NCBI GenBank assembly: GCA_041583235.1 | Contig: JBFHGG010000003.1 | Coordinates: 3,823-67,822, forward strand | From: Halarcobacter sp. | GTDB taxonomy: Bacteria > Campylobacterota > Campylobacteria > Campylobacterales > Arcobacteraceae | Direction: 5' to 3' | Length of the DNA: 64,000 nt | Part shown: positions 8,471-60,364 of the stretch, piece after piece | How positions within the stretch are numbered: position 1 is the stretch's first letter | Layout of the letters: every line of letters begins with the position of its first letter | The notes under the pieces: model-generated | The model's input: only the letters and a program-made list of their open reading frames with translations | Told to the model about the DNA's origin: nothing | The model's database searches: none | Program-made: the position numbers and the translations under genes

Positions 8471-9073
8471 GTGATACGTAAATTAAACCTTCTTTTATTA
8501 ACTCTATTTTGCCTAACTTCTTCAGCTAGTGCTGTAAACTATTATGTTTCAGATGATTTATATACTTATATTCATTCAGGGCCAGGAACACAATATAAAA
8601 TTATTGGTAGTGTAAATGCAGGGGAGCATATTAAAATACTTCAATCTAATGCAAATTTTACTCAAATAAAAGATTCAAAAGGTCGTTCAGGTTGGATTAA
8701 TTCAAAATTTGTTTCTAAAAGGGCAGGATTAAAAGAGCATTTACCAAAGCTCGAAACACAGCTTACAAAATTAAATGCACAATTAATTACTGTAAAAGAT
8801 AAAGCAGATAAAGATAAAATAAAGTTTAATGAAGATTTAGAATCAAAAAGTAAGCAAGTTAATGAATTACAAAATAAAAATTCTAAATTAAATAAAGAAT
8901 TACAAAAAATTCAAGCATTAAATCGTAATTTAAATGCAAAACTAGATACTCAAAAAAATGATTTACTAATGCGTTGGTTTACTTATGGAGGAATGGTTGC
9001 AGGAGCTGGTTTACTTTTAGGTCTAATACTTCCAGTACTAATTCCAAGTCGTCGCCGTAAAACAAGGTGGTAA
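8471..9073 (+). CDS. SH3-domain protein, YgiM/HtrG (TIGR04211)-like
   Basis: Signal peptide, YVSDDLYTYIHSGPG...GW SH3 pattern, coiled coil, C-terminal TM and basic tail PSRRRKTRW; GTG start. Confidence 0.85.
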   Translation: MIRKLNLLLLTLFCLTSSASAVNYYVSDDLYTYIHSGPGTQYKIIGSVNAGEHIKILQSNANFTQIKDSKGRSGWINSKFVSKRAGLKEHLPKLETQLTKLNAQLITVKDKADKDKIKFNEDLESKSKQVNELQNKNSKLNKELQKIQALNRNLNAKLDTQKNDLLMRWFTYGGMVAGAGLLLGLILPVLIPSRRRKTRW

Positions 9074-9080
9074 TTAAATA

Positions 9081-9111
9081 AAGTAAAAAGTGCATTTAGC
9101 ACTTTTTACTT
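9081..9111. terminator. Bidirectional terminator between convergent genes
   Basis: aagtaaaaagtgc-attta-gcactttttactt, a 13-bp stem. Confidence 0.7.
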
Positions 9112-9140
9112 CTAAAATATTAGAACGAGGTTTTTGTATT

Positions 9141-10031
9141 TTAATAGGCTTTTAAAGACCCGAATAAATTAACAGAAAAACTTGTAACAGCTTCACTAAT
9201 AATTTTATCTATAAATCTATCAAATTTATCCTCTTTTTTCCATATAGGATTTGTTACACCTGATAATTTCATAGTTTGTGATTTTGCATAACTTAGTGTT
9301 GATACCTCATCAATAAGTCCTACTTCTTTAGCTTGACTAGATGTAAAAATATGAGCATCTGCATATACAGTATGATTCTCTTTTTTTAGTTTTCTAGCAT
9401 TTGCTACATCAGATATAAACATATCATATGTATCTTTAATAACTTTTTCTAACTCTGCTTTTTCATAAGAATTCCATTCTCTTGTTGGAGTTCCTGATTC
9501 TTTAAACTTTCCAGCTTTTATAGTTTGAGTTTTTACACCTATTGTTTTCATTAACTCTTCAACATTTGTTCCTTGAAAAATTACACCAATAGAACCTACC
9601 ATAGCTCCTGGATTAGCAATAATTTCATTTGCCCATATAGAAGCATAATAAGAGCCACTAGCCATTACACCACTTGCATATGCAACAACCGGCTTTAATT
9701 CAGCTAATTCTTTAATTGCATAGGCTAATTCTACTGAAGGGGCTACTGAGCCACCTGGAGAATTTACAAGTAAAAGAACACCTTTAATATTTTTATTCTT
9801 TTTAGCATCATCAATTTCCAACATAGTTTTTTCAATATTTAATATAGGTCCAAGTAATTCAATTTTTTGTAGATTGGCACCTTCAAATTCACCTCTATTT
9901 AAAGCTGAATCTTCCGAGCTTGCAACAAAAAAATAAACAATAGTTAAAAAAACTACTGTTTTAAAATACTTAGTTATAAAATCTAAAACGGCAATAATAG
10001 GATAAAACAATTTTTTAATCATCTCAAACAT
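9141..10031 (-). CDS. sppA: Signal peptide peptidase SppA (S49)
   Basis: NSPGGS, MASGSYY and VGSIGV motifs; start placed at MFEM behind a GGAGG SD. Confidence 0.9.
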   Translation of the reverse strand: MFEMIKKLFYPIIAVLDFITKYFKTVVFLTIVYFFVASSEDSALNRGEFEGANLQKIELLGPILNIEKTMLEIDDAKKNKNIKGVLLLVNSPGGSVAPSVELAYAIKELAELKPVVAYASGVMASGSYYASIWANEIIANPGAMVGSIGVIFQGTNVEELMKTIGVKTQTIKAGKFKESGTPTREWNSYEKAELEKVIKDTYDMFISDVANARKLKKENHTVYADAHIFTSSQAKEVGLIDEVSTLSYAKSQTMKLSGVTNPIWKKEDKFDRFIDKIISEAVTSFSVNLFGSLKAY

Positions 10032-11247
10032 CTTTTCCTCCAATAATTGTACTTTCTACAAATTTAGTATGCAAAATTACATTCATACATAAATCATTTT
10101 TATCTTTCACTTCATCAGGTAATATCATTGAAATAATATCAGCATCTGCATTTTTTACTAATTCACCTTTGTTTAAACCTAAAGCTCTACTACCATTTTT
10201 TGTAGCTGCTTTTAATAACTCTTTTGAAAACTCTAAAACATTTTTATTTGTATGAGCCATTAAACAATTTCTTAATTCATCAAACATTGATAAAGAGTTA
10301 TTAGAACTTAATCCATCAGTTCCAATTGAATAATTAATATTTTCTAAATTATCTAAATTTAATTTACTATTATTTAACAATCTATTAGAAGTAACACAAT
10401 GATTTATTGTAGCTTTCAACTCTTTTATTTTTTCTAAATCTTTTAAACTAGCTTCCACACAATGCGTAAAAGAAAGATTTTCTAATCCCTTAAAGTGATT
10501 TAAAAATTCTATTGGCTTTGTAACAGCTTTTTCTTGACCTAAAAAATTTTTAAAGAAATGTAGAAAACTACCTTCATCTTTATGCAACCAAATAAATTCT
10601 TCAGGTGATTCTAAAAAGTGAGAAGAGACTGCAAGATTCTCTTCTCTTGCCATTTGTAAAGTCTCTCTTAATAAAAAAGGATGCACTGAATAAGGGGAAT
10701 GAATAGCAATAGCAGGTATAAAATTTTCACTTTTATTTAACTGTGAACTTTTTAATCTAGCTTTAAAATCTGTAAAAAGTGTATCAACCATATCAGGTTT
10801 ACTACCTATTACTTCATTAAAAAAAACTGTATTTATTGGAGATTTAACACAAGCTTCTAAATCATATGAATAAGAGGATATTGCACCTATTGTTGTTGTT
10901 CCAGTTTTTTGCATTTGTAATAATTTTAATGAAATAAATTTAGACGTTGATTTTTCAACTAATTCATCTCTTAAACTTATAACTGAATTTAACCAATCCA
11001 TAAAGTTACCATATTTAAGTGTAGTTTTATTAGAAGAAAACTCTAAATGTACATGAGAATTTATAAGTCCTGGCATTAAAACTGAATTTTCTTTTAATGA
11101 AGTAATTTCTATATTTGGGTATTTTTTTTGAATAAAATCTAAGCTTCCTACATCAACAATTTTCTTATCATAAACAACAGCACCATTTTTTATAATGCTG
11201 TTATTTTCATCGCAAGTTATAACCCAAGATGCATTAATAATTTTCAT
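10024..11247 (-). CDS. Metal-dependent amidohydrolase, aminodeoxyfutalosine deaminase-like (futalosine menaquinone pathway)
   Basis: PGLINSHVHLE, HSPYSV, HFLES and GTDG motifs; the substrate is inferred from Campylobacterota context. Confidence 0.7.
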   Translation of the reverse strand: MKIINASWVITCDENNSIIKNGAVVYDKKIVDVGSLDFIQKKYPNIEITSLKENSVLMPGLINSHVHLEFSSNKTTLKYGNFMDWLNSVISLRDELVEKSTSKFISLKLLQMQKTGTTTIGAISSYSYDLEACVKSPINTVFFNEVIGSKPDMVDTLFTDFKARLKSSQLNKSENFIPAIAIHSPYSVHPFLLRETLQMAREENLAVSSHFLESPEEFIWLHKDEGSFLHFFKNFLGQEKAVTKPIEFLNHFKGLENLSFTHCVEASLKDLEKIKELKATINHCVTSNRLLNNSKLNLDNLENINYSIGTDGLSSNNSLSMFDELRNCLMAHTNKNVLEFSKELLKAATKNGSRALGLNKGELVKNADADIISMILPDEVKDKNDLCMNVILHTKFVESTIIGGKDV

Positions 11248-11252
11248 ATATA

Positions 11253-11744
11253 TTATTTTTGAGGAGCTTGAGCTTGTTGTGCTTGAGCTTGCTGTGCTTC
11301 AACTGCTTTAACTTCAGAAACAATTTGAGTTAAAGAGATTAATCCAAGATGATAACCAAATGGTCCAAATCCAGAAATAACACCTGTTGAAGATGAAGCA
11401 GTTATTGATTTTTGTCTAAACTCTTCTCTTTTATAAATATTAGAAATATGTACTTCCACAGTTGGTAAGTTAACTGCTGCTAAAGCATCTTTAATTCCGA
11501 TTGAGGTATGTGAATAAGCTGCAGGATTAATTAAAATTCCATCAACTGTTCCTAAACACTCTTGAATTCTATCAATAATTTCACCCTCAAGGTTAGATTG
11601 GAAGAATTCTAATTCTACACCATTTTGTTCTGCACTTCCTTTCATTTGATCATGAATTTGATCTAAACTCATTGGACCATAAATATGTTGTTCTCTAATA
11701 CCTAACATATTTAAGTTTGGACCTTGGATTACCGCTATTTTCAT
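11253..11744 (-). CDS. aroQ: Type II 3-dehydroquinate dehydratase
   Basis: [25 protein letters not shown] and EVHISN motifs. Confidence 0.96.
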
Positions 11745-11880
11745 ATTATATTCCTTTTAAATAGTCCCCATTTAAAAGGGACCTTTGTATTTTACAACTA
11801 CTTTATTAACAATTGGTATGAAACCTACTTAAAAGTAGCAAAATTCTAAAGAGAACAATTAATTGTTCTTTTCTATAAAT
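11745..11880 (-). repeat. Three-hairpin conserved element, copy X (5' of aroQ)
   Basis: About 70% identical by manual alignment to 13503-13629, with compensatory changes in the stems. Confidence 0.75.
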
Positions 11881-11941
11881 TTTGGGTAAGATTATATTCA
11901 AATTATAGTTAATACTAAATCAAATTTAAAAAAGAGAAATT

Positions 11942-12967
11942 ATGAAAAATTATATTTTATTGAATGAAAACGCAATTTATTATGAATGTGGCTTTTCTTG
12001 TGATAATGTTGTATTCTTAAAGTTAGGTAAGGAGTCTTTTTTTATTACTGATGCTAGATATACTATTGAAGCACAAGAGTATGCGAAAAACTCAATTGTA
12101 ATTCAAAGTTCTGATTTTATAAAAGATACACAAGAATTATTAAAAAAATCAAAAATCAAAAAAATCACCTTTGATCCAAATGATTTTAAATTAGCTTTTT
12201 ATCAAAAACTAACAAATGATTTAAAAATAAATTTTATTCCAAAAGAAAACTTTTCAAAATTAAAAAGAATCATTAAAAGTGATGAAGAAGTTGAACTTCT
12301 AAAAAAAGCTGCAATAATTGGAAAAGCAGGATTTAAAGAACTTGCTAAATTTATAAGAAAAAATGGCTTTAATCAAAGTGAAAACTTTCTTCATTTTAAA
12401 GCAATAGAAAAAATGAGTCAAATAGGTAAATATGATTTAAGTTTTGACCCTATTGTTGCTATTAATGAAAATGCTGCAAAACCTCATGCCCTACCCACAA
12501 ATAAAAAATTAAAATTAAATAGTTTGATATTGGTTGATGCTGGAGTTAAATATAAAAGGTATTGTTCGGATAGAACTTGTACTTCAAACACAAATTTTGA
12601 GAAATTTACTTTTAAAAGAGAACAAAGATTTAAGAATAAAAAACATCAAAAGATTTATGATTTAGTTTACAAAGCTCAATTAAACGCAATAAGTAAAGCA
12701 AAAGTTGGAATGAAAGCTTCTAAAATTGATAAACTTACACGTGAAGTAATTGAAAAAGCCGGATATGGAGATTTTTTTGTACATAGTACAGGACATGGAG
12801 TGGGATTAGATATTCATGAGTTTCCAAATATAAATTCAAAGTCTGATGTTATAATAGAAGATAATATGGTCTTTACTATAGAACCAGGAATCTATCTTCC
12901 AAATGAATTTGGAGTTAGAATTGAAGATACAGTAGTAATGAAAAACGGCAAAGCCGTAATACTTTAA
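11942..12967 (+). CDS. Xaa-Pro aminopeptidase, M24 family
   Basis: AAKPH, LVDAG, YCSDRT, HSTGHGVGLDIHE, TIEPGIY and GVRIED motifs. Confidence 0.92.
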   Translation: MKNYILLNENAIYYECGFSCDNVVFLKLGKESFFITDARYTIEAQEYAKNSIVIQSSDFIKDTQELLKKSKIKKITFDPNDFKLAFYQKLTNDLKINFIPKENFSKLKRIIKSDEEVELLKKAAIIGKAGFKELAKFIRKNGFNQSENFLHFKAIEKMSQIGKYDLSFDPIVAINENAAKPHALPTNKKLKLNSLILVDAGVKYKRYCSDRTCTSNTNFEKFTFKREQRFKNKKHQKIYDLVYKAQLNAISKAKVGMKASKIDKLTREVIEKAGYGDFFVHSTGHGVGLDIHEFPNINSKSDVIIEDNMVFTIEPGIYLPNEFGVRIEDTVVMKNGKAVIL

Positions 12968-13031
12968 AAAATCAAAAAATTTGAAAATTTAACTTGACTT
13001 ATTTAATAAGTTTTATATTTTCAGGAGAAAT

Positions 13032-13514
13032 ATGAAAAAAAAATTAGCAGACAATTTAACACTTTTTTATAGTTCAAATTTTCCAAAAGTTTTCAATAAA
13101 TATTCAAATAAAAAACACTCTGTAACTATTGGTATTGGGGGAAATATTGGGAATATGAAAAAAACATTTGATAAATTACTCTTATGTTTAAAAGAGGATT
13201 CAAGATTTACTCTAATTAAAACTTCTGCACTATTAAAAAATCCTCCCTTTGGATTCTTAGAACAAAATGATTTTTTAAATGGTATAATTACCTTTAAAAC
13301 AAATCTTTGTCCTAATGCTCTTTTAAAAGCAATGCAAAGATATGAAAATAAATTCGGAAGAAAGCGATCCTTTCAAGATGCGCCTAGAACCTTAGATATT
13401 GATATAATATTTTTTGATAATAAAAAAATTAATACAAAAAATTTAATCATCCCTCATAAAGATTGGGCAAATAGAGAGTCTGTTATTATTCCTTTAAAAC
13501 TTATTTATAAATAG
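13032..13514 (+). CDS. folK: 2-amino-4-hydroxy-6-hydroxymethyldihydropteridine diphosphokinase
   Basis: IGIGGNIG, DFLNG, PRTLDIDII and IPH motifs. Confidence 0.93.
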   Translation: MKKKLADNLTLFYSSNFPKVFNKYSNKKHSVTIGIGGNIGNMKKTFDKLLLCLKEDSRFTLIKTSALLKNPPFGFLEQNDFLNGIITFKTNLCPNALLKAMQRYENKFGRKRSFQDAPRTLDIDIIFFDNKKINTKNLIIPHKDWANRESVIIPLKLIYK

Positions 13515-13629
13515 AACAACTCGTTGTTCACTTTAGGGTTTGCTTCTTTAAGTGGAATTTATTTCCACTGCTAAAAGAAGTCATAAAATATATGGTTCCT
13601 TTTAAAAAGGAACTTTTTTAAGGATAAAA
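13503..13629 (+). repeat. Three-hairpin conserved element, copy Y (5' of mnmA1)
   Basis: Stems at 13514-13529, 13543-13580 and 13594-13614; homologous to copy X. Confidence 0.75.
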
Positions 13630-14730
13630 ATGAAAAAAAAGGTAGTTGTTGGAATGTCTGGTGGTGTTGATTCATCAGTTACTGCACTATTATTAAAACA
13701 ACAAGGATATGAAGTAGTAGGCTTGTTTATGCGAAATTGGGAATATGGAATCGAAGGTAGCCAATGTCCTAATCGTATAGAGTTTGAAGATGCTAAAAAA
13801 GTTGGTGAACTAATAGGAATTGAAGTAAAAGGTAAAGACTTTGTAGAAGAGTACAGAACAAAAGTATTTGATGTATTTTTAGAAGGTTTAAAAAAAGGAC
13901 TTACTCCAAATCCAGATATACTGTGTAATCGTGAGATTAAATTCAATGTATTTTTAAATGAAGCAAAAAAAATGGGTGCAGATATGATTGCAACTGGACA
14001 TTATGCAAAAATAGCTAAACACAATGACCACTATGTACTAGATACTCCAAAAGATTCTTCAAAAGACCAAAGTTATTTTTTACATGCATTATCAAGTGAA
14101 CAATTATCTCATGCGATGTTTCCTCTTGGTGATTTAACTAAAAAAGAAGTAAGAGAAATAGCAAGAGAACATAATCTTCCTGTAAGTGATAAAAAGGATA
14201 GTACTGGAATTTGTTTTATAGGTAACCAAAGATTTGATGAGTTTATCACCCAACATCTAAAAGCAGTTCCTGGAGATATTATAGATGAGAATGGAAAAGT
14301 TATAGGAAAACACAAAGGTCTTATTTGTTACACATTAGGTCAAAGAAAAGGTATTGGTCTTGGTGGTATTAAAGAAACTGAATCAGCAGGTCATATTCAT
14401 AAACCATGGTATGCTGCAAAAAAAGATATAGAAAATAATACTTTAACAGTTGTTCAAGATACTATACATCCTTTACTTATGAATCAAAATGTTGAAGCTA
14501 GCCATATGCACTGGGTACTTGAAACCCCTCCTAAAATTGGAGATAAACTAGTGGCACAAGTTAGATATCGTCAACAAAAACAAGCTTGTACAGTTTGTGA
14601 AACTTTTGATGATGGGAGAGTAATAGTAAAATTTGATAAACCTCAAAGAGCAGTAACTTTAGGTCAAAGCCTTGTTTTATATGATGGAGATTATTGTTTA
14701 GGTGGGGGTTTTATAAGTAATTACTATTAA
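13630..14730 (+). CDS. mnmA: tRNA 2-thiouridine(34) synthase, D-type (DxxC+C)
   Basis: SGGVDS, MRNWE, PNPDILCN, ATGHYA, KDQSYFL and DSTGICFIG motifs. Confidence 0.94.
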   Translation: MKKKVVVGMSGGVDSSVTALLLKQQGYEVVGLFMRNWEYGIEGSQCPNRIEFEDAKKVGELIGIEVKGKDFVEEYRTKVFDVFLEGLKKGLTPNPDILCNREIKFNVFLNEAKKMGADMIATGHYAKIAKHNDHYVLDTPKDSSKDQSYFLHALSSEQLSHAMFPLGDLTKKEVREIAREHNLPVSDKKDSTGICFIGNQRFDEFITQHLKAVPGDIIDENGKVIGKHKGLICYTLGQRKGIGLGGIKETESAGHIHKPWYAAKKDIENNTLTVVQDTIHPLLMNQNVEASHMHWVLETPPKIGDKLVAQVRYRQQKQACTVCETFDDGRVIVKFDKPQRAVTLGQSLVLYDGDYCLGGGFISNYY

Positions 14731-14769
14731 ACAATCATTAGCTTTACTTTAGCAAAATTAGTTTTTAAA

Positions 14770-14778
14770 TGCTACAAT
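14770..14778 (+). promoter_or_regulatory. Possible extended -10 (TGcTACAAT) for mnmA2
   Basis: Sequence match only; no TSS data. Confidence 0.4.
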
Positions 14779-14807
14779 TGCGCTTCAAATTAATCTTTGC
14801 AGAAATA

Positions 14808-14988
14808 CTTTTTTAAAGCTATGCAAAGATATTAAAATAAATTCGGAAGAAAGCGATCCTTTCAAGATACGCCTAGAACCTTGAATATTGATATAATATT
14901 TTTTTAATTATAAAGAATTAATAGAAATAATTTAATTATTCCTTTTTAAAATTGGGCTAGTAGAGAATCAGTGATTATTCCTTTAAAA
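14808..14988 (+). pseudogene. folK: Decayed duplicate of the folK 3' end
   Basis: Near-identical to about 13320-13499 (atgcaaagatat.aaaataaattcggaagaaagcgatcctttcaagat...), with GAA>TAA at 14833-14835, a second stop and indels. Confidence 0.9.
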
Positions 14989-14998
14989 AGGATGAATT

Positions 14999-16033
14999 AT
15001 GAGCAAAAAAGTAATGGTTGGTATGAGTGGAGGAATTGATTCTTCAGTAACTGCTTATATGCTACAAAAAGATGGATATGAAGTTGAAGGGGTATATTTA
15101 AAACTTCATAATAGAACAGATGGTTATCATGAAAAAAATTTAGAACATATAAAAGATGTAGCAAAATTCTTGAATATCAAATATCATATTTTGGATTTAG
15201 CAGATAAATTTACAACTGAAATATATGACTATTTTGTTGATTCTTATTTAGAAGGAACAACTCCAAACCCATGTGTGAAATGTAATAAACAGATAAAATT
15301 TGGTGCTATGCTTGATTTTGCGAAAGAGAAAGGGGCTTCATTTTTAGCAACAGGACATTATGCTAAAACTGATGGTGAGTTTTTCTATGAAGCAGATGAT
15401 AAAACAAAAGACCAATCTTATTTCTTATCTCAAGTAAATAAAGAAGCTTTACCTTTTATGATGTTTCCACTAAGTACCTATAATAAAGAAGATATCATTA
15501 AATTTGCTAAAGATTTAGATGTAGCTTATGAAAGAATTACTGAAAAAAATGAATCACAAGAAATTTGTTTTGTTGAAACTGTATATACAGATGTTGTAAA
15601 AAAACATGCAACTATTGATGTTCCTGGAAAAGTATTAGACGAAAATGGAAATATTGTAGGAGAGCATAAAGGTTATGCACATTATACAATTGGTAAAAGA
15701 AGAGGTTTTACAGTTCATGGAGCTCATGAACCTCATTTTGTAACAAAATTAAATGCAAAAGACAATACAATTGTTGTTGGAAAAAAAGCTGCTTTAGAGA
15801 TAAATGAAGTAGAAGTTGAGAACTTAAATATGTTTATAACAGAGCCTTCTTTTTCATGTACAGTTAAGTTAAGATATAGATCTGTTTCAATACCTTGTAG
15901 AGTTAAAATTGAAGGGAATAAAGCTAAAATAACTTTAGAAGAACCCGCTTTTGGAGTTGCATCTGGGCAACTTGCAGTTTTTTATAATAATCAAAAAGTA
16001 CTAGGTAGTGCTTGGATAACAAATACTAAGTAG
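14999..16033 (+). CDS. mnmA: tRNA 2-thiouridine(34) synthase, C-type (CxxC+C)
   Basis: SGGIDS, PNPCVKCN, ATGHYA, KDQSYFL and ESQEICF motifs. Confidence 0.94.
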   Translation: MSKKVMVGMSGGIDSSVTAYMLQKDGYEVEGVYLKLHNRTDGYHEKNLEHIKDVAKFLNIKYHILDLADKFTTEIYDYFVDSYLEGTTPNPCVKCNKQIKFGAMLDFAKEKGASFLATGHYAKTDGEFFYEADDKTKDQSYFLSQVNKEALPFMMFPLSTYNKEDIIKFAKDLDVAYERITEKNESQEICFVETVYTDVVKKHATIDVPGKVLDENGNIVGEHKGYAHYTIGKRRGFTVHGAHEPHFVTKLNAKDNTIVVGKKAALEINEVEVENLNMFITEPSFSCTVKLRYRSVSIPCRVKIEGNKAKITLEEPAFGVASGQLAVFYNNQKVLGSAWITNTK

Positions 16034-16037
16034 GCTC

Positions 16038-16066
16038 TTAAACTAGGCTCTTAGACCCTAGTTTAA
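16038..16066 (+). terminator. Hairpin after mnmA2
   Basis: ttaaactagg / cctagtttaa, a 10-bp stem. Confidence 0.5.
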
Positions 16067-16207
16067 AAGTCCATAAAAAATATATTTATTAGATATTTTA
16101 TTTTTATTTAAAAAGACAAAAATCAAAAATATCAAATAACTTAAAATTGATTAAGTAGTTTTTAGATAAAATCGCAACAATACATACAATCACACAAGGA
16201 TAATCTG

Positions 16208-17140
16208 ATGGCGAAATTTAAGCTTTTTAGCGGTACCGCAAACCCTGAATTTGCTAAAAAAGTTGGTAAATATTTGAATATGCAAATAGGTGGAGCAACT
16301 ATACAAAAATTTAGTGACGGTGAAATATCTGTTCAAATTCATGAAAGTGTTAGAGGACAAGATGTATTTATTGTTCAACCAACATGTGCCCCAACAAATG
16401 ATCACTTAATGGAATTACTTATAATGGTAGATGCACTTAAAAGATCAAGTGCAAAATCTATTTCTGCAGTTATTCCATATTTTGGATATGCAAGACAAGA
16501 TAGAAAAGCAGCTCCTAGAGTTCCAATTACTGCAAAATTAGTTGCTGATATGTTAGAATCATCTGGAATTGATAGAGTCATAACAATAGACTTACATGCC
16601 GCACAAATTCAAGGTTTCTTTAATATACCTGTAGATAATTTATATGGTTCTGTATTATTTGTAGATTTCTTAAAAAGAAAAAATCTAAAAAATCCAATTA
16701 TTGCAAGTCCTGATATTGGTGGAGTTGCACGTGCAAGATCATATGCTGACAAATTAGGTTATGATTTAGTTATTGTTGATAAAAGAAGAGAAAAAGCAAA
16801 TGTTGCTGAAGTAATGAATATCATTGGTGAAGTAAAAGGTAAAGATGTAATTTTAGTAGATGATATGGTTGATACAGCTGGAACTTTAGTTAAAGCTGCT
16901 GAAGCATTAAAAAGTAGAGGAGCTACATCTGTTATGGCCTGTTGTACACATGGAGTACTAAGTGGTCCTGCTTTTGAAAGACTTAATAATGGAACATTAG
17001 ATGAACTTGTTATCACAGATACAATTCCATTACATGGAACTAGTGATAAAATAACTATCTTAACAGGTACTAAAATTATTGCAGAAACTATTAGAAGAAT
17101 CACAAACAACGAATCTGTGAACTCTATCTTTATAGATTAA
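16208..17140 (+). CDS. prs: Ribose-phosphate pyrophosphokinase
   Basis: FSDGE, PYFGYARQDRK, DLHA, SPDIGG and DDMVDTAGT motifs. Confidence 0.97.
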   Translation: MAKFKLFSGTANPEFAKKVGKYLNMQIGGATIQKFSDGEISVQIHESVRGQDVFIVQPTCAPTNDHLMELLIMVDALKRSSAKSISAVIPYFGYARQDRKAAPRVPITAKLVADMLESSGIDRVITIDLHAAQIQGFFNIPVDNLYGSVLFVDFLKRKNLKNPIIASPDIGGVARARSYADKLGYDLVIVDKRREKANVAEVMNIIGEVKGKDVILVDDMVDTAGTLVKAAEALKSRGATSVMACCTHGVLSGPAFERLNNGTLDELVITDTIPLHGTSDKITILTGTKIIAETIRRITNNESVNSIFID

Positions 17141-42676: not shown

Positions 42677-42737
42677 GATATTTCCTTTAAATTAGTTCCT
42701 GATTTATTGGAACCTTTTTTATTTATTCTTATTTTAT

Positions 42738-60311: not shown

Positions 60312-60364
60312 TCATTTTCCTTTTATATGTCCCATTTAAAAGGGACCTATACTTTTATTTAAAT

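Follow-up and report, generated by a model that had tools for sequence, protein, structure and literature searches.

The closest described systems to the element reported here are the Neisseria REP2/CREN repeats and the similar IR sequences of Borrelia plasmids, which are 120-150 bp long, lack terminal inverted repeats, contain internal stem-loops, adjoin the ribosome-binding site (RBS) in the orientation of the gene and are present in some strains and absent from others (Delihas 2011, PMC3184786; PMC9031163). REP2 is described as bringing along a promoter, an RBS and an ATG, and the genes that it precedes form a co-regulated set (PMC3184786). The bcr1 repeat of the Bacillus cereus group is a non-coding mobile repeat of ~155 bp with a 5-bp flanking direct repeat, which is transcribed, shows compensatory structure at the RNA level and varies in distribution between relatives (PMC3184786). 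The element considered here lies in a 64,000-nucleotide stretch of a Halarcobacter sp. contig (JBFHGG010000003.1, positions 3,823 to 67,822 of the forward strand), termed the window, in two copies placed upstream of aroQ (copy X) and mnmA1 (copy Y). Both are members of a previously undescribed, Arcobacteraceae-specific, non-coding and modular interspersed repeat family of ~115 nt, whose members point in the direction of the downstream gene and are inserted at the 5' edge of a Shine-Dalgarno (SD) sequence that was there beforehand.

The repeat shares with REP2/CREN the lack of terminal inverted repeats, the internal stem-loops and the position immediately upstream of open reading frames (ORFs). 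It differs from REP2/CREN, the Borrelia IR, bcr1 and the REP/BIME elements in having no promoter of its own, a nucleotide-exact placement on the host SD and a helix that pairs with that SD; the comparison with REP2 is one of published features, and the repeat is also set apart from REP2 by lacking a conserved -10 box, by using the SD of the target gene and by preceding unrelated housekeeping genes. Compared with bcr1 as reviewed, it is tied to the SD and to one orientation, carries the anti-SD switch and belongs to a different phylum (PMC3184786). The REP/BIME elements of Enterobacteria and Pseudomonas, associated with RAYT transposases, likewise combine hairpin modules having compensatory stems with conserved linkers at extragenic or intercistronic sites; however, REPs are G+C-rich, occur in both orientations and lie mostly 3' of genes or between convergent genes, whereas the present repeat is found only in the sense orientation at an SD. 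A RAYT gene was not identified here, though no search aimed at one was made. The Neisseria Correia elements (CREE) and classical miniature inverted-repeat transposable elements (MITEs) are also small, multi-copy, close to genes and co-transcribed, forming long RNA hairpins, and a TA duplication of their kind would fit the aroQ site, but they have terminal inverted repeats and occur in both orientations, neither of which holds for the repeat described here.

Both copies and their three hairpins (P1, P2 and P3) are located where a first-pass annotation, made from the letters of the window, had placed them, and each copy ends at an AAGGA SD followed by an ATG. The features of copy X and its surroundings are the following.

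11758-11873, minus strand: copy X, comprising all of the sequence inserted in front of aroQ, delimited by filled-versus-empty alignment with the congeneric genomes G022, G010 and G002 (covariance-model hit C3:15575-15693).
11853-11868, minus strand: P1 hairpin GAACAA-TTAA-TTGTTC, with a stem extendable to AAAAGAAC/GTTCTCTTT.
11839-11852, minus strand: J1/2 linker CTCTTTAGAATTTTG, a sequence kept across the repeat family.
11798-11838, minus strand: P2, with the conserved outer stem CTACTTT/AAAGTAG and a hypervariable, covarying inner hairpin.
11784-11797, minus strand: A-rich spacer between P2 and P3 with TAAAAT, which is not conserved in the family.
11764-11783, minus strand: P3 hairpin GGTCCC-TTTTAAAT-GGGGAC, a conformer in which the SD is free.
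11753-11779, minus strand: alternative hairpin P3alt, CCTTTTAAAT / ATTTAAAAGG, which pairs with the aroQ SD and is the predicted minimum free energy (MFE) structure for copy X.
11742-11758, minus strand: aroQ SD (AAAAGGA) and ATG (11742-11744), both present in element-free genomes.
11902-11907, minus strand: aroQ -10 box TATAAT, upstream of the insertion point and invariant in six aligned genomes.

Copy Y has the same arrangement on the opposite strand.

13511-13624, plus strand: copy Y, upstream of mnmA1 (ATG at 13630; covariance-model hit C3:17333-17446).
13514-13529, plus strand: P1 hairpin GAACAA-CTCG-TTGTTC, directly after the folK stop codon (13512-13514).
13543-13580, plus strand: P2, CTTCTTT...AAAGAAG, with inner arms AGTGGAA/TTCCACT.
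13594-13614, plus strand: P3 hairpin GGTTCC...GGAACT, flagged as terminator-like by a scan because of the T6 that follows it.
13598-13623, plus strand: P3alt, CCTTTTAAAAA / TTTTTTAAGG, which pairs with the mnmA1 SD.

The two copies are identical at 78% of aligned columns (MAFFT), the inner P2 arms being AGTAGGT..ACCAATT in X versus AGTGGAA..TTCCACT in Y, and the three-hairpin fold is found in both (z = -2.6 for X and -3.7 for Y against dinucleotide shuffles). Two details that the first-pass annotation had pointed out, TAAAAT before P3 and U6 after P3 of copy Y, are present in these copies but are not features of the family; the U6 "terminator" is specific to Y, and family-wide the P3 stem is 5-6 bp, its loop 8-10 nt and its tail a mixture of A and U. 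The similarity of X and Y is real and beyond chance (nhmmer E = 5e-35 and 3e-34), and chance resemblance is rejected by these values together with 15 further genomic matches. The element was thus undercounted when it was said to be present twice, as the genome carries 17 copies (BLAST-type search followed by nhmmer iterated to convergence).

The source assembly is a marine metagenome-assembled genome (MAG) of 2.93 Mb in 193 contigs, 95.9% complete. A covariance model built from 15 of its copies recovers the same 17 together with one weak hit (G000 contig C34:8423-8468, minus strand), which is partial, scores 32 bits at E = 0.06 and is possibly a decayed fragment of the element. Homologues were found when the covariance-model search proposed in the first-pass annotation was extended to 60 relatives, giving ~380 hits in 32 of 61 genomes, all of them Arcobacteraceae: within the genus all 24 genomes have the element, with 2-25 copies apiece, elsewhere in the family it occurs in 7 of 12 genera, with as many as 29 copies, and in the remainder of the order it was found in 0 of 24 families. 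When one genome per species was scanned for an exact pattern, the only matching records were those of Arcobacter, Halarcobacter and Arcobacteraceae, the carriers including the cultured A. iocasae KX21116 and Arcobacter spp. YIC-464 and YIC-310. Viral contigs gave 0 matches, and carriage by phage is rejected on this basis. As initially supposed, no Rfam family corresponds to the element, since an Rfam 15 cmscan of window positions 9000-17000 at E <= 10 returned four chance-level hits (15-21 bits compared with gathering scores of 34-60), by which a known RNA family is rejected. Literature searches found no description of such a repeat, or of MITEs, in Arcobacter.

The hairpins are maintained by compensatory change, as had been proposed from the two copies and is borne out by covariation of P1 and P2 in 85 distinct copies aligned to the covariance model. 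Paired cells in P1 and P2 amount to 98.4% compared with 75.0 +/- 0.6% when partners are shuffled, double-change cells number 402 versus 103 in shuffles, and the covariation score is 0.65 compared with 0.19 in shuffles and ~0.1 in slid registers. Despite their hypervariable sequence, the lower stem of P1 and the inner stem of P2 stay perfectly paired in nearly all cases. The parts conserved in sequence are P3, the outer P2 stem (YUUCUUUA/AAAAGAAR) and the linker CUCUUUAGGRUUUG. The P3 stem itself shows a compensatory switch, with GTCCC/GGGAC in 57 copies, GTTCC/GGAAC in 15 and a G-U intermediate in 5. Among the cells of P1 and P2 that are not Watson-Crick pairs, G-U outnumbers A-C by 41 to 7, a bias indicating that folding takes place on the gene-sense strand, either as RNA or as single-stranded DNA.

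All of the ~100 copies analyzed are in the sense orientation relative to the downstream gene and all adjoin an SD. The aligned 3' ends read ...GGGAC-N-ATTT(T)|(T/A)AAGGA followed by the start codon, and the spacing from GGA to the start is 5-9 nt in 82 of 89 copies. The element occupies either a short 5' untranslated region (UTR) or the gap that separates a stop codon from the SD of the following gene; because at least 11 of the 17 copies in the MAG begin 0-55 nt past the stop codon of a co-directional upstream ORF, many copies are intercistronic. The downstream genes are diverse housekeeping genes that form no coherent regulon, comprising in the MAG mnmA, sufC, trxA, a DEAD-box helicase, apbC, aroQ, a HIT-family gene, metE, a 2Fe-2S ferredoxin (fdx), cysK, ridA, a CitE-like lyase, rpsB, dapC, a parvulin (ppiC) and two unknowns, and in relatives ispH-, dnaJ-, guaA-, glnB-, folA- and mnmG-like genes as judged by their N termini only.

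Comparison of the aroQ upstream region across 24 congeners shows the element to be an insertion. Most congeners have an empty site, ...CTTACCyAAAATTTAT|AAAAGGAATATAATATG, including G022, a joint-closest relative with 92% AroQ identity, and the present genome reads ...AAAATTTATA + insert GAAAAGAAC...GGGGACTATT + TAAAAGGAATATAATATG. As the aroQ SD and the conserved TATAAT both pre-exist, the element is a ~116-nt insert between them, and with TATAAT upstream of the insertion copy X lies within the aroQ 5' UTR. In total, aroQ carries the element at the X site in 3 of 25 congeners, and three close filled/empty pairs differ by the insert alone (the present genome and G022, G014 and G010, G017 and G002). 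The empty site of G002 retains the C of the left end of the element (TTACAAAAGG) and looks like a deletion scar between flanking AAAAG repeats, which suggests that the element can be removed again by deletion between the repeats that bound it. G009 and G018 have an element in the same aroQ-pepP spacer that faces the other way and adjoins the SD of the divergent gene pepP. The flanks of copies in relatives point to at least 12 more loci where the relative has the element and the MAG has an empty site, each with a native (A)AAGGA-N5-9-ATG.

Copy Y has a paralogous empty site nearby.

14753-14988, plus strand: decayed duplicate of the folK 3' end before mnmA2 (83% identity over 238 nt).

This duplicate lies between mnmA1 and mnmA2, contains frame-breaking changes and runs straight into the mnmA2 SD and ATG, which implies either a duplication of the folK-mnmA junction or an insertion of mnmA1 at this place. 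The end of the duplicate, CCTTTAAAA|AGGATG (CCTTTAAAA|AGGATGAATTATG), is the paralogous equivalent of the Y site, and relative to this empty junction the inserted block of copy Y starts at 13500.

The family is multi-copy, small and non-coding with filled and empty orthologous sites, as are classical MITEs. Terminal inverted repeats are absent, the left end (G/C)AAAAGA(A/G)CAA being unrelated to the reverse complement of the right end AAT(A)GTCCC. Short direct repeats of the AAAG(G/A) type bound both the full element and modules consisting of P3 alone, and the bounding repeat does not extend beyond AAG. A longer target duplication formed by the P1 5' arm, prompted by one locus with 10/10 identity, is rejected as the matches average 2.71 compared with 2.62 +/- 0.09 in permutations.

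Tandem arrays and partial forms illustrate the modular construction of the repeat. In the chromosome of G016 (L061 1501-1856, minus strand) three head-to-tail copies separate a stop codon from the SD of the gene that follows, the AAAAG start of each following copy occupying the would-be SD position, and the first copy has an extra nested hairpin of ~22 nt (CTCAAAGAGAGTACAAGTAC) in the J1/2 linker. The same additional module is present at L127:5442, in the aroQ copy of G017 and partly in the dapC copy of the MAG; the G017 aroQ copy in addition lacks exactly the 26-nt P3 module. Two places in the window have P3 alone.

60329-60347, minus strand: P3-only module directly 5' of the SD of a ubiE-like gene, flanked by TAAAAG direct repeats and also able to pair with its own SD.
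42694-42714, minus strand: P3-only module directly 5' of the SD of an accD-like gene.

The presence of P3 alone at these genes shows that it behaves as an independent 26-nt module. In L120:6647-6739, L140:3021-3112 and L132:5839-5928 the inner P2 hairpin is missing and the outer stem closes on itself (GCTTCTTTA-T-AAAAGAAG), so that the inner hairpin looks like another optional module. The forms seen are therefore P3 alone, P1-P2 without P3, elements without the inner P2 hairpin and elements with the extra nested hairpin. The portable leader cassette or MITE-like reading offered in the first-pass annotation is borne out by a dispersed family that varies in copy number, forms tandem arrays and is polymorphic in its insertions, orthologous sites being filled in some genomes and empty in others. 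Mobility of the repeat is well supported.

The 3' module has a second possible fold, absent from the first-pass annotation. Within each copy the loop of P3 is reverse-complementary to the tail that follows this hairpin, for example TTTTAAAT/ATTTAAAA, TAAAAAT/ATTTTTA and TTTAATT/AATTAAA, and through this complementarity CC plus the loop pairs with the tail plus GG of the SD, leaving GGGAC as the loop. In this hairpin, P3alt, the CCUUUU carried by the element pairs with the AAAAGG SD of the gene, and it is mutually exclusive with P3. Within copies the complementarity extends without interruption over 5.76 bp on average, compared with 1.67 +/- 0.21 (maximum 2.33) in 2000 tail permutations. The mean predicted energies of P3 and P3alt are -8.6 and -7.3 kcal/mol, the SD is paired in the local MFE structure of 48 of 90 copies, and predicted SD accessibility is 0.29 in element-bearing leaders compared with 0.48 in 300 ordinary AGGA-SD genes of the MAG (p = 3e-8). 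The U-rich tract pairing with an AGGA SD in an A-U-rich hairpin is reminiscent of fourU-type RNA thermometers; however, predicted SD accessibility hardly shifts between 5 and 45 °C (in the 3' module the probability of an unpaired SD goes from 0.44 at 5 °C to 0.54 at 45 °C, and in the whole element it stays at ~0.30), a competing G-C hairpin is built in as P3, and the module is mobile and multi-copy. A thermometer is rejected as unlikely on the nearly flat prediction.

Two further observations concern aroQ and its surroundings. The divergent aroQ-pepP spacer (window 11880-11941; L077-L101) contains an invariant AATATAATCTTACC block in the aroQ -10 region of all congeners examined. The C terminus of AroQ (window 11253-11300, minus strand) is a low-complexity tail, and the AroQ match stops before residue 163 in all congeners but G011, the tail being apparently variable or absent there.

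On balance we lean toward an SD-adjoining interspersed repeat that is co-transcribed with the downstream gene and whose 3' module gates access to the SD, and not a two-copy riboswitch. In such a scheme the element, inserted at the 5' edge of the SD, would be carried in the mRNA of the downstream gene, and we infer both this co-transcription and a function of the repeat as RNA. In one state P3 (GGUCCC/GGGAC) would form and leave the SD free; in the other the CCUUUU(AAAU) of the element would pair with AUUU and the AAAAGG of the gene, occluding the SD. With the two states close in energy, translation would be either damped or responsive to whatever tips the balance, candidates being a protein, an RNase or ribosome traffic from the upstream cistron. 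P1, P2 and the conserved linker may act as 3'-end or processing determinants, or as recognition sites for a mobilizing activity.

Several points weigh against this explanation. Occlusion of the SD is a thermodynamic prediction, and P3alt does not have the wobble bias of P1 and P2, its G-U and A-C cells numbering 12 and 12. The element precedes essential genes (rpsB, aroQ, dapC, sufC and trxA), from which any repression must be mild. As the copies are phylogenetically related, the covariation counts overstate the number of independent events, and the stems could be kept for a single-stranded DNA transposition intermediate or could arise by template switching in quasi-palindromes, in either case without an RNA function. 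The sequencing runs on record for the marine MAG are DNA only. The boundaries of copy X are ambiguous by a shared TA, a TA duplication also fits the aroQ junction, and the exact termini of the element and any target duplication are ambiguous. A mobilizing enzyme of the IS200/IS605 TnpA type was not detected in the 96%-complete MAG by the regular expression YHIVWxPKYR or by tblastn with a TnpA sequence, both being weak tests.

Other searches for partners were also negative. A match to an E. coli-like CsrA was not present in the MAG, the seed being distant from the Campylobacterota protein, and the covariance-model hits in this genome include no longer element with the same ends. Partial copies of the J1/2 core or a trans-acting antisense partner were not seen at <=4 mismatches outside the known copies, in a noisy output, and a fuzzy-motif scan for an autonomous parent element was too permissive to give anything usable. 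An internal pyrimidine tract is able to pair with the flanking AAAG(G) at both ends of the element, CUCUUU in P1 and CCUUUU in P3alt. Such pairing is reminiscent of how guide and cleavage site recognize each other in single-strand transposition of the IS200/IS605 type, an analogy that is only a lead. The palindrome-associated transposable elements (PATEs) derived from IS200/IS605 similarly have no inverted termini, subterminal hairpins, oriented insertion by a short conserved target, a flank paired with an internal guide and no obvious classical target duplication. They differ in that the pairing in the present repeat is a 6-10-bp Watson-Crick helix instead of 3-4 nt and the AAAGG flank is found at both ends, and in the lack of a detected TnpA, subject to the weakness of that test.

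The alternative that we rank highest is a purely selfish non-autonomous element in which the hairpins and AAAGG-complementary tracts serve a trans-acting single-strand transposase (HUH/Y1-type or other) and any effect on the mRNA is incidental; we hold this to be a tentative possibility. Filled/empty polymorphism, tandem arrays and 2-29 copies per genome speak for such an element, as do the absence of inverted termini, the terminal hairpins, strict orientation, conserved flank and unrelated downstream genes, and the sense-strand wobble bias is equally expected for single-stranded DNA. Apart from the missing TnpA motif or homologue, it is opposed by orthologous copies shared across species (at fdx, sufC, apbC and ppiC), which have diverged in their stems and are still perfectly paired, implying selection that persists over the long term at every resident locus and does not end with transposition. 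The hypervariable inner P2 is also unlike the product of a recently spreading master copy. A bolder proposal, which combines mobility with the gate and which we regard as slightly more doubtful again, is an SD-homing mobile riboregulator, a non-autonomous element that would find the SD by CCUUU(U)-AAAGG pairing in single-stranded DNA or RNA, enter at its 5' edge in a single orientation, install a two-state gate (P3 versus the anti-SD helix) on arbitrary housekeeping genes and spread through the Arcobacteraceae as a transposable unit of post-transcriptional control.

Another explanation is intercistronic mRNA punctuation of the REP/BIME kind, with P1/P2 protecting or partly terminating the upstream cistron, the spacer serving as an endonuclease site and P3 as a 5' stabilizer of the downstream cistron to give differential operon expression. 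REP/BIME elements are known to affect mRNA stability (PMC3184786), most copies in the MAG directly follow the stop codon of a co-directional gene, and the hairpins flank an A-rich single-stranded spacer constrained in length to 13-14 nt. We nevertheless consider punctuation unlikely, as it leaves unexplained the covarying helix that pairs with the SD, the nucleotide-exact abutment on the SD and the copies in monocistronic 5' UTRs such as that of aroQ.

A portable promoter and RBS cassette like Neisseria REP2/CREN, starting transcription from a -10 box between P2 and P3 so that the mRNA would contain only P3 and the SD, has a precedent in REP2 (PMC3184786) and draws on the TAAAAT located 5-7 nt before P3 in X and Y and a 9/12 promoter-like match in Y. 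This is very improbable, and the promoter part of the cassette suggested in the first-pass annotation is not supported. TANAAT occurs in only 10 of 86 P2-P3 spacers, the conserved spacer positions (T1 and A3) misfit a -10 hexamer, and promoter-like matches in the region are at the shuffled expectation (13 versus 13.0); the rarity of TANAAT and this background level of matches show that a portable promoter is not a feature of the family. At empty aroQ sites the SD and the conserved promoter, which is upstream of the insertion, are already present, and the sense-strand wobble bias of P1 and P2 is unexpected for untranscribed DNA. A sigma-70 promoter in J1/2 or the spacer is rejected by the same scarcity of TANAAT, and a sigma-54 promoter in J1/2 by inspection, as the GG-to-GC spacing is wrong.

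A ligand-sensing riboswitch or other conserved leader of the classical kind, handed down vertically together with a defined regulon behind it, is the least probable of all and hardly credible, because strong covariation with conserved junction sequences and several sulfur- or Fe-S-related downstream genes (sufC, apbC, cysK, metE, trxA, mnmA and fdx) are outweighed by the lack of an Rfam hit, by the unrelated genes (rpsB, aroQ, dapC, the DEAD-box helicase, ppiC and the N-terminal readings in relatives), by presence or absence at the same gene between close relatives and by tandem triplets and optional modules, so that a sulfur/Fe-S regulon riboswitch is rejected for its many unrelated genes and presence/absence pattern and the riboswitch-like control of aroQ and mnmA first envisaged is not supported in that form, there being no regulon downstream and no element at aroQ in most congeners.

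We found no described interspersed hairpin repeat that combines nucleotide-exact placement at the RBS, constant sense orientation and a covarying helix on the host SD. Modeling the family as an Rfam or repeat entry would avoid its being mis-called as a riboswitch, terminator or small RNA in Arcobacter and Halarcobacter genomes. If targeting by base pairing is true, it would represent a new insertion specificity. If the gate works, the 3' module would provide a compact, portable two-state RBS switch for engineering, and within the Arcobacteraceae regulation would have been spread by insertion, one module retuning the translation of dozens of unrelated core genes in a manner that differs between sister species.

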